This document shows, piece by piece, positions 11,183-58,317 of a stretch of DNA of 64,000 nt. This stretch comes from Hyphomonadaceae bacterium. GTDB taxonomy: Bacteria; Pseudomonadota; Alphaproteobacteria; Caulobacterales; Aquidulcibacteraceae. The notes below the pieces were generated by a model, which was not told where the DNA came from, ran no database searches, and saw only the letters and a list, made by a program, of their open reading frames with translations. The DNA lies in NCBI GenBank assembly GCA_033764855.1, contig JANRIP010000005.1:102240-166239 (forward strand), written 5' to 3'. Position numbers and translations under genes: made by a program. Every line of letters begins with the position of its first letter. The first letter of the stretch is position 1.

Positions 11183-12298
11183 ATGACGCCCATGTCCCTG
11201 CCCGCTTGGCTCTACACCGATCAGCGCTTTTTCGAGCTGGAGCGCGAGAAAGTCTTTCGCCCCGCCTGGCACATAATGGGCCACATCAATGATGCGCCAA
11301 AGCCGGGCGATTACATCACGCTCGACATATTGGGCGACCGGGTCGTCACGCTGCGCGGCGAGGATGGCGAAATACGCAGCTTCCACAATGTGTGCCGCCA
11401 CCGCGCCGGCAAGCTGGCGCCGGAATCACGCGGCTCATGCGGGCATCGGCTGGTCTGCCCGTATCATGCCTGGAGCTATAAGCTCGACGGCAGCTTTGCC
11501 GGCGCGCCGAAATGGCAAGGCTTTGAGGGGCTCGATCCGCAAGAGCTGGGGCTTGTTCCGGTGGAGCAGGAAATCTTCGCCGGCTTCATTTTTATCCGCT
11601 TCGAAAAGGGCCTGCCCAGCATCGCCGAAATGATGGCGCCCTATGCCGATGAGATCGCGCAGTTCGAAATGGAAAAGCTGGTGCCAAATGGCCGCGTCAC
11701 GCTGCGGCCGCGCACGGTGAACTGGAAGAATGTCGGCGATAATTATTCCGACGGCATGCACATCCCGGTCGCGCATCCTGGGCTTTCGCGCCTGTTCGCC
11801 GGCTCGTACCAGATCGAAGCCCAGCAATGGGTCGATAAGATGTGGGGCCACATTACCGACGCGCCCTCCAACCATTGGCCGGAGCGCCAGTATCAAAAGC
11901 TGCTCGACGGCTTCACGCACATCCCGCCGGAGCGGCGCAAGCTGTGGGTCTATTACAAGCTGTGGCCCAATGTGGCGTTCGACATTTATCCGGACCAAAT
12001 CGACTTCATGCAGTTCGTGCCGGTCTCGGCCACTGAAACCATGATCCGCGAAATCGCCTATGTGCATCCGGATTCCAGCCGCGAAATGAAGGTGGCGCGC
12101 TACCTCAACTGGCGCATCAACCGGCAGGTCAATGCTGAGGATACGGCGCTGATCCAAGCGGTGCAGGACGGCATGGCGTCATCGAGCTACACCACCGGGC
12201 CGCTCTCGCCGAGCGAGCATTGCCTGATCTCCTTCGGCAACCGCATGCGCGCGCTGATCCCGGAAGCCAGCCTCGATCGCGCGCCGGCGACGGTGTGA
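11183..12298 (+). CDS. Rieske (2Fe-2S) aromatic-ring-hydroxylating oxygenase alpha subunit
   Basis: Rieske motif CRHRAGKL...CPYHAWSY, then a catalytic domain with DNYSDGMHIPVAHP. Confidence 0.85.
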   Translation: MTPMSLPAWLYTDQRFFELEREKVFRPAWHIMGHINDAPKPGDYITLDILGDRVVTLRGEDGEIRSFHNVCRHRAGKLAPESRGSCGHRLVCPYHAWSYKLDGSFAGAPKWQGFEGLDPQELGLVPVEQEIFAGFIFIRFEKGLPSIAEMMAPYADEIAQFEMEKLVPNGRVTLRPRTVNWKNVGDNYSDGMHIPVAHPGLSRLFAGSYQIEAQQWVDKMWGHITDAPSNHWPERQYQKLLDGFTHIPPERRKLWVYYKLWPNVAFDIYPDQIDFMQFVPVSATETMIREIAYVHPDSSREMKVARYLNWRINRQVNAEDTALIQAVQDGMASSSYTTGPLSPSEHCLISFGNRMRALIPEASLDRAPATV

Positions 12299-12304
12299 AC
12301 CTCA

Positions 12305-12367
12305 CACCCATTCCCCAGGGGCGGCGAAGCCGCCGGACTTTTGCTTCGCAAAATCCGGGAATGGGTG
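12305..12367. repeat. family-B palindromic element, gene-less copy (B2)
   Basis: Outer inverted repeat cacccattcccc / ccgggaatgggtg enclosing two small hairpins (ggcggc-gaa-gccgcc and ttttgc-ttc-gcaaaa). Termini match the element around the GIY-YIG gene at 57818..58317. Confidence 0.7.
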
Positions 12368-12999: not shown

Positions 13000-13104
13000 C
13001 CGTCATTCCGGACGCGCGGAGCGCGATCCGGAATCCAGGGGGTGACACGCTCAGGATGTCGCCCCTGGGTTCCGGGTTCACGCTGCGCGTGCCCCGGAAT
13101 GACG
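13000..13104. repeat. family-A nested-palindrome element (A1, solo)
   Basis: Outer IR ccgtcattccgg / ccggaatgacgg, inner IR ccggaatccagggg / cccctgggttccgg, and arm hairpins cgcgc-gga-gcgcg and cacgc-tgc-gcgtg. Confidence 0.85.
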
Positions 13105-19290: not shown

Positions 19291-19430
19291 CGTCATTCCG
19301 GACGAACTCCCGCGAAAGCGGGAGGGAGACCCGGAACCCAGGAGGACTGGGCGCAGCGCCAAACTCGCATCTAAAAAATTGAGGTTGTCGCCCCTGGGTT
19401 CCGGATCGCGCTCCGCGCGTCCGGAATGAC
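19291..19430. repeat. family-A nested-palindrome element (A3, solo, long loop)
   Basis: Outer IR gtcattccggacg / cgtccggaatgac, inner IR ccggaacccagg / cctgggttccgg (perfect), arm hairpins ctcccgc-gaaa-gcgggag and cgcgc-tcc-gcgcg. Fills the gap between two convergent genes. Confidence 0.85.
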
Positions 19431-22499: not shown

Positions 22500-22620
22500 C
22501 CATTTCCGTCATTCCGGGGCATGCGCAGCATGAACCCGGAATCCAGGGGATGACAGAGCATATCGGCTGCCCCTGGATTCCGGGTTCGACCTAGCGGTCG
22601 CCCCGGAATGACGGAAATGG
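22500..22620. repeat. family-A nested-palindrome element (A4)
   Basis: 20-bp perfect outer IR ccatttccgtcattccgggg / ccccggaatgacggaaatgg, 18-bp perfect inner IR gaacccggaatccagggg / cccctggattccgggttc, arm hairpins catgc-gca-gcatg and cgacc-tagc-ggtcg. Confidence 0.9.
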
Positions 22621-22632
22621 TAGCGTCGAGCT

Positions 22633-22953
22633 ATGTCCCGCTACGAAGCCATTGCGGTTTACATCATGGCGAATGAGCGCAATGGCACGCTCTATATTGG
22701 CGTGACCAGCAATTTGCCACGACGCGCTCAGCAACATCGCGAAGGGCTCGTTGAAGGCTTCACGCAGAAGTACGGCTGCAAGCTACTTGTTTGGTTTGAA
22801 CAACGCCAAGATATGCACACCGCGCTCGCACGCGAGAAAGAACTCAAGAAGTGGCGCCGCGACTGGAAGCTCGCCCTGATCGAGAAATCAAACCCACAAT
22901 GGCGGGATCTCGCGGAGGACTTCCTAAATCCCCCGCCGCCAACTTTTCTCTGA
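22633..22953 (+). CDS. GIY-YIG nuclease family protein
   Basis: 106 aa with YIMANERNGTLYIGVTSNL...H..G...F..KYG...LVWFE...E..LKKWRRDWK. Bracketed within 12 and 2 bp by elements A4 and A5. Confidence 0.8.
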   Translation: MSRYEAIAVYIMANERNGTLYIGVTSNLPRRAQQHREGLVEGFTQKYGCKLLVWFEQRQDMHTALAREKELKKWRRDWKLALIEKSNPQWRDLAEDFLNPPPPTFL

Positions 22954-22955
22954 TC

Positions 22956-23063
22956 CGTCGTTCCGGGGCGACCGGAGGTCGAACCCGGAATCCAGGGGCC
23001 AGCAAGTACCGCGCTCTCGTCCCTTGGATTCCGGGTTCATGCTCCGCATGCCCCGGAGTGACG
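22956..23063. repeat. family-A nested-palindrome element (A5, inverted relative to A4)
   Basis: Outer IR cgtcgttccgggg / ccccggagtgacg, inner IR gaacccggaatccagggg / cccttggattccgggttc. The arm hairpins cgacc-gga-ggtcg and catgc-tcc-gcatg occur in the opposite order to A4. Confidence 0.85.
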
Positions 23064-28304: not shown

Positions 28305-28402
28305 GATCGGCACCCGGGGAGCCGCGCCGAAGCGGCTGAGATTGGGCTGACGCCCTGACCCGTTGAACCTGATCCGGGTCATGCCGGCGAAGGGAGAGAC
28401 CC
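28305..28402 (+). promoter_or_regulatory. TPP (THI-box) riboswitch
   Basis: Conserved elements ggggagc...gctgaga...ccctgacccgttgaacctgatccgggtcatgccggcgaaggga directly upstream of thiC. Boundaries approximate. Confidence 0.85.
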
Positions 28403-28482
28403 ATGACGCCAGCCAACACCAATTGCGCGCGCCGCGGCCAGACCGCCGCTTCCGCGCGCGCATCTCGTCCCATCCAGGATAA

Positions 28483-31356: not shown

Positions 31357-31516
31357 CCCTTCTCCCCTTGAGGGGAGAAGGTGGCCCGGAGGGCCGGATG
31401 AGGGGATCACGGTGGTCGCGGAATGGGGCGACGTCACCAGCGCTAAAGTTGGAAACAAAGAACTGCCCCTCATCCGTCGGCTTCGCCGACACCTTCTCCC
31501 CTCAAGGGGAGAAGGG
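31357..31516. repeat. family-C composite palindromic element (C1)
   Basis: Terminal hairpins cccttctcccc-ttga-ggggagaagg and ccttctcccc-tcaa-ggggagaaggg, with internal IR atgagggg / cccctcat. Begins 3 bp after the stop of the preceding gene. Confidence 0.85.
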
Positions 31517-31572
31517 TTGGACCGGCGCTCACCCGGCGCTGCGCGCCACCCTCTCCCCTCAAAGGGAGAGGG
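31517..31572. repeat. family-C half element
   Basis: ctcacccggcgctgcgcgccaccctctcccc-tcaaa-gggagaggg resembles the right half of C elements. Confidence 0.6.
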
Positions 31573-31588
31573 ACAATAAGCTGGAAGC

Positions 31589-31939
31589 ATGAAGCGCAAT
31601 CCGGACAGCGTCCGTCGCGCGCGTGAGAGCCGCGCGGAGATGACCAATGCGGAGACCAAGCTTTGGTCGCTGCTTCGGGATCGTCGGCTGATCAGCCGCA
31701 AATTCCGCCGCCAGCACACGATTGGAATTTACGTTGTCGACTTCGCCTGCCCGGCGCTCCATCTCGTGATTGAGGTGGATGGGCCGTCGCACGACGCGGA
31801 AGACCAGAAGGTGTTTGACGCGCAGCGTACCGAATACCTCCAACGCGAAGGCTGGCGCGTGATCCGGTTCAAGAATGACGAAGTGTATCAGTCGTTCGGA
31901 TACGTGCAGGAGCGCATCATAGCCGAATGCGGCGAGTGA
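31589..31939 (+). CDS. DUF559 (Vsr-like endonuclease fold) protein
   Basis: 116 aa with MTNAETKLWSLLR...FRRQH.IG.YVVDFACP...LVIEVDG.SH...D..R...L...GWRVIRF.N.EV, typical of DUF559. Confidence 0.85.
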   Translation: MKRNPDSVRRARESRAEMTNAETKLWSLLRDRRLISRKFRRQHTIGIYVVDFACPALHLVIEVDGPSHDAEDQKVFDAQRTEYLQREGWRVIRFKNDEVYQSFGYVQERIIAECGE

Positions 31940-31946
31940 TAAGCAT

Positions 31947-32100
31947 CCCCTCTCCCCTTGAGGGGAGAGGGTGGCGCGAAGCGCCGGGTGAGGGGCTGAC
32001 GGTGTCGGCAGAATAAAGCTCGATCTCGTTCGCTTGGCGCCAGATACGCGCCCCTCATCCGCCCGCTTCGCGGGCACCTTCTCCCCTCAAGGGGAGAAGG
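31947..32100. repeat. family-C composite palindromic element (C2)
   Basis: cccctctcccc-ttga-ggggagaggg ... gtgagggg / cccctcat ... ccttctcccc-tcaa-ggggagaagg. Starts 8 bp after the DUF559 stop. Confidence 0.85.
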
Positions 32101-35497: not shown

Positions 35498-35524
35498 TTA
35501 TCCTCCAGCGGTCCCATCCCGGAC

Positions 35525-35700
35525 CCAAGGATCGTTTGCCGGCAGGTCTTCTGGCTTCGCGGGTCAGCGCTTTGATCCGCCTTCCCGGATTGCTCCAGTG
35601 GCTGGTTGGATCAGAGCTCGCCGCTTACAGCTGCGGGCGCAGCCGCGGAATTGCACCGCGTTCCCTCGTGCTCCTTACGGAGACCGACATGGGCTCTCTT
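35525..35700 (-). promoter_or_regulatory. cobalamin riboswitch
   Basis: The minus strand reads ...agggaacgcggtgcaattccgcggctg...gccactgg (B12 box, plus-strand ccagtggc at 35595-35602)...gggaaggc...agaagacctgccggc. Boundaries approximate. Confidence 0.85.
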
Positions 35701-35735
35701 AAAGGCGCGGCGGCGGCGGCGCAATCGAACGCGCC

Positions 35736-54086: not shown

Positions 54087-54162
<76 letters not shown>

Positions 54163-57533: not shown

Positions 57534-57811
57534 GCCGGCTGCGGGTCCGGCTAACACCTTCGGGCGGCGCCGACCGCATTGACGGCGCAGGCGCGGACGA
57601 GAAAGGCCCCTATCTCAAAGCGCGCGTGCGCGCCGCGCCGGAAAAGGGTCTCGCCAATGCCGCGCTGGAGACGTTGATCGCCAAAGCGCTTGGCGTGGCG
57701 AAATCGAATGTCAGCGTTGCGCGCGGGACCACATCGCGCATGAAGAGTGTTGAGATAGAAGGCGTCAGCGACGCGGAGGTGTCCGCACTTCTTAGCAAGC
57801 ACAGCACTTAA
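57530..57811 (+). CDS. DUF167 (YggU-like) protein
   Basis: 93 aa, overlaps the yggT stop. The yggT-yggU pairing is conserved in many bacteria. TTG start. Confidence 0.75.
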   Translation: MSRLRVRLTPSGGADRIDGAGADEKGPYLKARVRAAPEKGLANAALETLIAKALGVAKSNVSVARGTTSRMKSVEIEGVSDAEVSALLSKHST

Positions 57812-57817
57812 ACCTCC

Positions 57818-58317
57818 CACCCATTCCCGGGGCGCCGCGCAGCGGCGAGCCCGGGACCCATAAACTGGCTTGTCTAAAGATTGCCATTTGCTGCGCCCCG
57901 CGCACAATTCCGCAATGCGCACTGACGAAAGCCGCCTGACCGCGACCTACATGCTCGCCAACCGCAAACACGGCACGCTTTATCTCGGTTCAGCGCTCGA
58001 CCTGGTTCAGCGCATGAGCGAACACAAATCCGGTCTCGGCTCCCAGTTCGTCGCGAAATATGGGCTGGATCGGCTTGTTTGGTTTGAGCCATTTATGCTC
58101 GTCTCAGAGGCGCGCGACCGCGAATACCAACTGAAGAAATGGCGGCGAGACTGGAAGATCAATCTCATCGAGCATGAAAATCCAGACTGGGATGACCTCT
58201 ATCCCACGCTTACAGGCGGAACGCCGATGCGCTCTCGCTGGCGTCCAGGCTAGACTTCAAAACAAACGTGTTTATGGGTCCCGGACTTGGCGCTTTGCGC
58301 CAATCCGGGAATGGGTG
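57818..58317. mobile_element. family-B nested-palindrome element carrying a GIY-YIG gene (B1, putative mobile unit)
   Basis: Outer IR cacccattcccgg (57818-57830) / ccgggaatgggtg (58305-58317). Inner IR ccgggacccataaac (57851-57865) / gtttatgggtcccgg (58270-58284). Arm hairpins cgccgc-gca-gcggcg and ttggcgc-ttt-gcgccaa. The gene occupies the loop. Confidence 0.7.
57915..58253 (+). CDS. GIY-YIG nuclease family protein
   Basis: Start at MRTDESRLTATYMLANRKHGTLYLG. Shares GTLY[IL]G, KYG, LVWFE, LKKWRRDWK, LIE, NP.W.DL with the 22633..22953 protein. Confidence 0.8.
   Translation: MRTDESRLTATYMLANRKHGTLYLGSALDLVQRMSEHKSGLGSQFVAKYGLDRLVWFEPFMLVSEARDREYQLKKWRRDWKINLIEHENPDWDDLYPTLTGGTPMRSRWRPG

Follow-up and report, generated by a model that had tools for sequence, protein, structure and literature searches.

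The 64,000-nucleotide stretch of Hyphomonadaceae DNA analyzed here (the window) contains, at 57818-58317, a 500-bp cassette in which a GIY-YIG nuclease gene is flanked by two inverted hairpin units of ~48 nt whose conserved tags point outward. The cassette lies between the genes of a DUF167/YggU protein and FolD. Its gene and repeats are referred to as family 1, as distinct from a second, paralogous gene and its repeats in the same window (family 2), and its components are as follows.

57818..57865, + strand: left family-1 hairpin unit, composed of the tag CACCCAT, the stem half TCCCGG, a variable arm hairpin (GCGCCGC-GCA-GCGGCG), the stem half CCGGGA and the tail CCCATAAAC (from sequence, inverted-repeat search and folding)
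57881..57908, + strand: promoter-like site TTGCCA-16-CACAAT (a candidate by consensus match only, with 0.2 expected by chance)
57915..58253, + strand: gene of a 112-aa single-domain GIY-YIG nuclease, family 1, a paralogue resembling the Ssn nucleases discussed below (PF01541, E=1.3e-12)
58270..58317, - strand: right family-1 hairpin unit, which reads CACCCAT-TCCCGG-ATTGGCGC-AAA-GCGCCAAGT-CCGGGA-CCCATAAAC on the minus strand (from sequence, inverted-repeat search and folding)

The repeat finder returned imperfect inverted arms at 57818-57873 and 58262-58317, which are 56 nt long, 79% complementary and separated by 388 nt. Their ends are the exact outer 13-mers CACCCATTCCCGG (57818-57830) and CCGGGAATGGGTG (58305-58317), and the inner repeats of the 500-bp unit occupy 57851-57865 and 58270-58284. 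When up to two mismatches are allowed, the outer 13-mer matches the window six times, compared with 1.9 matches expected; it is exact at 57818 and, on the minus strand, at 58305 and 12355, and has two mismatches at 12305. Both arms fold into small hairpins, and the arms together with a 63-bp gene-less copy elsewhere in the window gave z values of -3.0 to -4.8 relative to shuffled sequence. The outer and inner inverted repeats and the arm hairpins that the initial annotation had proposed were thus recovered by the repeat finder and by folding. The open reading frame (ORF; 57915-58253) lies entirely between the arms, and the promoter-like site is situated between the left unit and the gene, 7 nt 5' of the nuclease start codon. 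No T-run terminator was found in the family-1 arms of the window, and Rfam, at its gathering thresholds, assigned no RNA family to any of these repeat elements.

The only Pfam match of the 112-aa protein above the curated cut-off is PF01541, which covers residues 11-83; an identical protein is annotated in a Hyphomonadaceae metagenome-assembled genome (MAG). In an alignment of 18 homologues the catalytic residues are intact, with Y23, G25, R33, H37 and E70 invariant and Y12 nearly so (≥90%). The AlphaFold model (pLDDT 86.7) consists of one beta-beta-alpha-alpha-beta-alpha-alpha domain, that is, a bare GIY-YIG domain, and Foldseek matched it with GIY-YIG domains only, the nearest folds being those of UPF0213, the N-terminal domain of UvrC, and Slx1. 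Neither Pfam nor the model revealed a separate DNA-binding domain of the I-TevI type in the family-1 protein, which stops ~25 residues past the catalytic domain. Its score against TIGR01453, a model of group I intron endonucleases, was 18.3 bits, compared with a cut-off of 56.05. We know of no repeat association of UPF0213/YhbQ-type proteins. These bare GIY-YIG domains of ~95-107 aa include the closest solved structures and sequences (PDB 1zg2 and 1ywl), but they are only 24-28% identical to the window protein (E=2e-7).

Two nuclease genes, each with its own repeat family

Family-1 repeats were scanned for with a pattern derived from the right arm, CCGGACTT-N(8-18)-AATCCGGGAATGGGTG, in one genome per species. 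At least 113 stretches, in roughly 25-30 genomes, match this pattern, and the palindrome for which further copies had been anticipated turned out to be a dispersed family with many gene-less members. All of the matches listed fall in Terricaulis, Vitreimonas and Hyphomonadaceae/Caulobacteraceae MAGs related to them, a single MAG accounting for as many as 15 loci, and pairing of the termini gave 124 distinct elements among the matches listed. These 124 listed elements are 44 bp (n=1), 63 bp (n=1), 100-109 bp (n~44) or 120-155 bp (n~70) long, or 500-520 bp with the gene inside (n=5), and the gene-less and gene-linked copies among the matches listed number ~110 and ~15, respectively. The usual gene-less form is a head-to-head dimer of 103-155 bp that retains the inner repeats around a spacer of ~10-60 nt, its layout being CACCCATTCCCGG-[hairpin]-CCCGGGACCCATAAACAC-variable spacer-GTGTTTATGGGTCCCGG-ACTT[hairpin]AAT-CCGGGAATGGGTG. 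Dimers of 100-155 bp with the tags outside make up nearly all of the 124 listed elements.

A common variant combines a T-to-C change in the outer left arm with an A-to-G change in the inner left arm (CATCCCCGG...CCGGGGCCC), which shows that TCCCGG pairs locally with CCGGGA. Each half therefore forms a separate hairpin unit, two of which make up the element as an inverted doublet. The stems of the arm hairpins comprise at least 20 (right) and at least 39 (left) different sequences, mostly perfect at 6-7 bp, whereas chimeric controls that join different copies pair over ~3.3 bp only. The paired, stem-keeping changes first noticed between the two window copies are thus real and general, and the hairpin structure of the arms is under selection. 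The loop of each unit, 12-19 nt long, folds into a 5-7-bp hairpin with a GNA triloop; the triloops are overwhelmingly C-GAA-G or C-GCA-G, each half on its own unit strand, and we take them to be the very stable DNA mini-hairpin of the d(GCGAAGC) type. Because both halves have GNA loops on their own strand, which a single transcript would not need, they point to a structure at the DNA level. The most conserved part of the element is the 7-nt tag CACCCAT (≥97% over 238 termini), and 5' of it the sequence varies but is poor in G. At orthologous sites the arms are conserved, the spacers drift, and the arm hairpins change through compensatory substitutions, which argues for constraint or homogenization. 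One subtype of the family-1 dimer (CACCCATCCCCGGATGAATGC...) is enclosed by a further outer inverted repeat (ATTGAA[AT]CAC ... GTGATTCAA), a third level of nesting that was seen in several genomes, at L010, L049, L062, L074, L091, L093, L097 and L120. A family-1 dimer also occurs on a 5.1-kb contig binned as "uncultured Dehalococcoidia" (L058), whose flanks are 96-99% identical to an alphaproteobacterial MAG contig (L018); this contig is probably mis-binned.

The other family-1 element of the window has no gene.

12305..12367, + strand: 63-bp gene-less family-1 derivative, in which the outer tags and both arm hairpins are kept and the inner stem halves and tails are deleted

This copy is present with its arm hairpins, as had been reported, but its left terminus is slightly different (CACCCATTCCCCA). 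It folds as a three-way junction (-24 kcal/mol, z = -4.75). Its reading as a MITE-like form (MITE, miniature inverted-repeat transposable element) or an empty site did not survive the census, where it is one of 124 listed elements; the standard element includes the inner repeat, which this 63-bp copy, a rare derivative, has lost by deletion. Both window copies follow a stop codon and a similar hexamer, taa-acctcc after the DUF167/YggU ORF that ends at 57811 and tga-acctca after a 371-aa ORF that ends at 12298, just as the initial annotation described. Across the family, however, ACCTC[AC] was present at 3 termini out of 238; this context is therefore not general, and a shared target hexamer was rejected for that reason.

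Among loci selected by their repeats, all 12 family-1 genes are <40 bp from, between, or inside family-1 elements, and in four of four loci selected by the protein only, the cognate element abuts or embraces the gene. The order yggT-yggU-gene-folD of the window recurs at L001. At L005 a complete dimer of 134 bp lies 34 bp 5' of the gene and none lies 3', and at L123 (Terricaulis silvestris) and L124 a complete dimer lies 8-18 bp 5' of each gene. The gene is accordingly found inside a dimer (window, L001 and L032), beside one (L005, L123 and L124), or between several (L038, L085 and L102). The central loop in which the initial annotation placed the gene is not the rule: the window ORF does lie between the arms, but in relatives the gene is mostly beside or between complete dimers, from which it is 7-40 bp away when not between them; the window arrangement is better read as unit-gene-unit than as a gene in the loop of one element. 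The genomic location of the family-1 gene varies from genome to genome and includes yggU-folD, peroxidase-HSP70, a site next to an integrase-family gene, and acyl-CoA dehydrogenase-SnoaL. At L038:5628-5935 the family-1 gene matches as two overlapping pieces in different frames and is apparently frameshifted, as a pseudogene or through an assembly error; it still has dimers on both sides.

The second nuclease gene of the window is accompanied by a repeat family of its own.

22633..22953, + strand: second single-domain GIY-YIG nuclease gene, family 2, 106 aa (tblastn; PF01541, E=1.2e-15, residues 8-79)
22500..22620, no strand: family-2 head-to-head dimer 5' of the second nuclease gene, whose two units, 22507-22549 (+) and 22570-22613 (-), read CGTCATTCCGGGG-[hairpin]-AACCCGGAATCCAGGGG
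22954..23063, no strand: family-2 head-to-head dimer directly 3' of the second nuclease gene
13001..13104, no strand: gene-less family-2 dimer
19291..19430, no strand: gene-less family-2 dimer, more diverged

The 64-kb window thus holds two family-1 and four family-2 elements. The family-2 protein, for which 5429 homologues were found, is 46% identical to the family-1 protein, and the catalytic residues are spaced by 11 and 47 residues in both (family 1, Y12/Y23/E70; family 2, Y10/Y21/E68). All three family-2 genes considered, that of the window and two protein-selected ones from other genomes, have family-2 dimers on both sides. In independent genomes, the genes of each family are accompanied by the repeats of that same family, and the association is therefore specific and cognate: the gene and the repeats are linked, each of the two paralogues has its own repeat family, and the palindrome family is specifically tied to the GIY-YIG gene. 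Genes of XerC/XerD-type tyrosine recombinases (Phage_int_SAM and Phage_integrase) were seen directly 5' of the family-1 gene and dimer of T. silvestris (L123:8929-9831) and, in a second genome, 2 kb from a family-2 gene (L126:12370-13284); with n=2, this may be coincidence. The dRS3 repeats of Neisseria are reported targets of a phage recombinase.

Probable kinship with Ssn nucleases and CGTC-tagged repeats

The initial annotation knew of no established description of such elements, but two exist, the Ssn/NTS/SRM system (PMC11893778) and the CGTC-tagged repetitive extragenic palindromes (REPs; PMC3733652). SsnA of Neisseria meningitidis is a 94-aa single-domain GIY-YIG protein (cd10448) with the catalytic residues Y6, Y17 and E64, which binds the hairpin repeat NTS (CGTCATTCCCGCGMAVGCGGGAATCYRG) solely as single-stranded DNA and on one strand only, and cuts a few nucleotides upstream of the repeat, the tag being the repeat region most important for cleavage (Chenal et al., Nat Commun 2025, PMC11893778). 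The same authors described thousands of Ssn homologues, with SRM repeats nearby in 71% and on both sides in 42%, and found that homologues cut their own repeat variants. They likened the NTS-ssnA-NTS layout to an insertion sequence and to the case of REPs and REP-associated tyrosine transposases (RAYTs), while the role demonstrated for Ssn in Neisseria is the modulation of transformation, not transposition; whether the nuclease mobilizes the repeats was left open by these authors too (PMC11893778).

The window pairs resemble that system in several respects: a single-domain GIY-YIG protein of ~94-110 aa (112 and 106 aa in the window) with the same spacing of the catalytic Tyr/Tyr/Glu; hairpin repeats around the gene, whose 5' tag is oriented and conserved and whose palindrome is followed by C; gene-less copies that number hundreds in the genome; and a repeat variant of its own for each homologue. 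The unit-gene-unit layout of family 1 corresponds to NTS-ssnA-NTS, and the family-2 gene lies between two full dimers. They differ from it in the loop of the repeats, which is an extra mini-hairpin of 12-19 nt instead of the 0-5 nt of SRM, in the family-1 tag, which is CACCCAT instead of HGTCWY, in that nearly all of their units come in pairs, as long head-to-head dimers, and in the host, a free-living member of the Caulobacterales represented by a MAG.

The published SRM string, HGTCWYN(0-2)YYVSBRHN(0-5)WNVSBRGN(0-2)RNCYNB, was applied to 80 protein-selected metagenomic relatives with 44-61% identity. A strict match lies within 300 bp of the gene in 19 of them, and on both sides in 9. The SRM density near the relatives' genes is 0.76 per kb, compared with 0.035 per kb further away (~22-fold), and the tags at these loci mostly face outward. 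Because the genomes are GC-rich, the minimum free energy of flanking sequence did not discriminate well enough to test the association in relatives, and inverted-repeat scoring was used instead, together with the SRM string; the scan for inverted repeats, which is agnostic to repeat family, found strong palindromes in a flank of 40 of the 80 relatives, compared with ~5% per flank in controls. At two loci, L150 and L177, the exact NTS consensus of N. meningitidis stands beside genes of 96-aa proteins, which share 48-55% identity with those of the window. Ten SRM-flanked proteins, including these two, are 48-61% identical to the window proteins and lend indirect support to a kinship of the latter to the Ssn family. 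Judged from these comparisons, the 500-bp unit is probably an Ssn-type cassette, whose protein would fall within or very near the Ssn family and whose repeats would be derived, SRM-like REPs of the CGTC type. The feature itself is genuine and not a product of chance, and on this reading it represents a diverged form of the system described in 2025 rather than a kind of its own.

CGTC-tagged REPs are found mostly in alpha-proteobacteria and have the terminal tag CGTC (or TGTC/CCTC), a stem of 8-9 bp that starts with A,T, a loop of 4-5 nt and a CCA tail (Di Nocera, De Gregorio, Rocco, BMC Genomics 2013, PMC3733652). They mostly form head-to-head ("HH") dimers with the tags outside and spacers of 20-100 bp, they "apparently lack a dedicated transposase", and REPs generally lie downstream of genes (PMC3733652). 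The family-2 unit agrees with this description in its CGTC tag, its 8-bp stem starting with AT (ATTCCGGG ... CCCGGAAT) and its CCA tail, and the elements of both window families are, likewise, alpha-proteobacterial HH dimers with the tags outside and without an associated transposase. In contrast, family 1 has a CACC tag, the 6-bp stem TCCCGG/CCGGGA and a CCCAT tail, and the loop of both families is expanded to a hairpin. On this reading, an extra C-GNA-G mini-hairpin has taken the place of the 4-5-nt loop, and the tag of the family of the 500-bp cassette has turned from CGTC into CACC; the GIY-YIG genes went unnoticed in the study of CGTC-tagged REPs (PMC3733652). The inverted doublets of REP hairpins, the small cognate gene flanked by repeats and the long persistence at orthologous sites are shared with the REPINs and their RAYTs (Bertels and Rainey 2011, PMC3116915; Nunvar 2010, PMC2817692), but the enzyme here is a hydrolytic GIY-YIG nuclease in place of a Y1 HUH transposase with its covalent intermediates.

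If the analogy with SsnA holds, the family-1 protein would recognize the folded unit solely as single-stranded DNA and solely on the CACCCAT strand, and would cut a few nucleotides 5' of the tag. Indirect hints of such strand-specific recognition are the GNA loops that both halves have on the unit strand and the high conservation of the tag. The cut on the + strand would fall in or next to acctcc (57812-57817) and that on the - strand just to the right of 58317, so the predicted cuts would lie outside both ends of the 500-bp unit and on opposite strands. Such cuts might spread the repeats, or they might serve the host, for example by restricting incoming single-stranded DNA as in Neisseria.

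Several results weigh against the Ssn-type reading. The strict SRM string has no match in the 64-kb window. Family 1 fails it at the tag, CACCCAT, and the published search string consequently misses its repeats; family 2 needs a loop limit of ~12-16 nt instead of 5, and three family-2 units, including both of the dimer at 22500-22620, are recovered once loops of up to 24 nt are allowed. No target-site duplication was found at the 238 termini, and a search for empty sites, in which each element's 150-bp flanks were joined and matched to all loci, turned up orthologous sites that were all occupied, a result that is uninformative on mobility because the loci had been chosen by element presence. 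Presence/absence polymorphism was also not found, in a sample that is biased to occupied sites in the same way. Moreover, a head-to-head dimer offers one unit per strand in the cleavable orientation, and GIY-YIG nucleases hydrolyze DNA and cannot rejoin it, so that the known activity alone does not explain transposition.

Mobility of the repeats and its alternatives

One possibility, which we regard as somewhat doubtful, is that the cassette is an autonomous element with MITE-like derivatives, the nuclease copying the palindromes to new sites as RAYTs are thought to do for REPINs and the unit-gene-unit form being the founder. The insertion sequence-like layout with its outward tags, the excess of gene-less over gene-linked copies among the matches listed, the differing loci of the gene across genomes and the separate repeat family of each paralogue would all agree with such a founder, as would the transposase-less state of the CGTC-tagged REPs (PMC3733652) and the analogy with insertion sequences and RAYTs raised by Chenal et al. 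(PMC11893778). MITE-type transposition, as the initial annotation had envisaged it, was nevertheless not demonstrated, because neither a target-site duplication nor an empty site was found. Unlike an insertion sequence, the gene encodes no transposase domain, and, as had been noted, no transposase gene is present nearby (within ~2.5 kb). The missing polymorphism, the hydrolytic chemistry, the single cleavable unit on each dimer strand and the role of SsnA in transformation argue in the same direction, and the elements persist at orthologous sites across species with flanks only 77-88% identical, which implies slow turnover. Two short-read contigs that encode the identical YggU protein end inside the left arm (L121:2283-2320 and L122:2283-2318); a strain polymorphism between yggU and folD was considered and rejected here, since these ends are an assembly break at the repeat and not an allele. 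Because the repeats break assemblies, they are under-counted in MAGs.

Another possibility is that the gene is a free-standing, homing-type selfish gene that landed in or beside pre-existing REP dimers, the repeats being its mere target and having been spread by something else. The occurrence of the gene inside, beside or between dimers and the weak match to TIGR01453 would be compatible with homing, but that match is far below its cut-off, no I-TevI-type DNA-binding domain accompanies the catalytic domain, no cassette boundary is conserved between loci, and cleavage by the characterized family members is confined to single-stranded DNA and does not extend to duplex homing sites (PMC11893778). 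The homing-endonuclease reading was rejected on domain content, and we consider this history improbable. It is harder still to believe that the gene and the palindromes have no functional link and that the latter are ordinary REP-like terminators or mRNA stabilizers that accumulate in any intergenic space. Both family-1 copies of the window do begin just past a stop codon, in keeping with the general location of REPs downstream of genes (PMC3733652), but the arms lack a T-run terminator, GNA loops are present on the unit strand of both halves, where a single transcript would not need them, each repeat family is specific to its cognate gene family in independent genomes, and SRMs are enriched ~22-fold next to the relatives' genes.

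The most interesting by-product of the analysis is a gene of a 116-aa DUF559 nuclease (Vsr-like, PD-(D/E)XK) at 31589-31939 (+), which lies in the region 31357-32100 and is enclosed by two sets of double hairpins in inverted orientation, each unit reading CCTCATCCGG-[GC hairpin]-CACC-TTCTCCCC-loop-GGGGAGAAGG. Its arms in the window (31528-31572 and 31948-31992) are 96% complementary. The same layout was observed in five of the five genes/genomes examined, four of which were selected by protein only (L123:955-1585, L208:1420-1905, L209:1850-2030 and L212:1420-1905), with units on the downstream side only at L209, and ~25 further hairpin copies of the DUF559 type were seen in 20 loci without a DUF559 gene. 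The arrangement resembles an Ssn-style pair of nuclease and repeats in which the nuclease has another fold, and no published description of it was found in a literature search that was itself inconclusive. Rfam, at its gathering thresholds, also identified features unrelated to these pairs, namely a cobalamin riboswitch at 35524-35703 (-), a TPP riboswitch at 28305-28412 (+) and a tRNA gene at 54090-54162 (-).

A broader proposal, which we put forward tentatively and think rather unlikely as it stands, is that stand-alone nucleases, of the Ssn type with a GIY-YIG domain and, in parallel, of the Vsr-like DUF559 type, are the long-missing makers and maintainers of the alpha-proteobacterial CGTC-type and related REP dimers. 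They would act by a nuclease-only, non-HUH route, in which a single-stranded nick is followed by host repair or template switching, and this genome would contain at least three independent co-evolving nuclease/repeat pairs, comparable to RAYT/REPIN.

Relative to what has been published, the loop that became a mini-hairpin, the CACCCAT tag, the obligate long head-to-head dimers and the presence of two cognate pairs in one genome are modest but useful differences, whose practical value lies in annotation and in the scope of the family. By the published SRM string this genome counts as free of repeats, although it has two Ssn-like genes with abundant cognate repeats; the Ssn family and its set of repeats therefore extend beyond what the present definition covers. 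With their different tags (CACCCAT and CGTCAT), the two pairs of this genome offer a natural specificity switch for enzymes that are being developed as site-specific cutters of single-stranded DNA. The parallel DUF559 case suggests that the gene-in-repeats layout extends beyond one nuclease fold, and the explicit link between Ssn genes and CGTC-tagged REPs makes the origin of these REPs testable.

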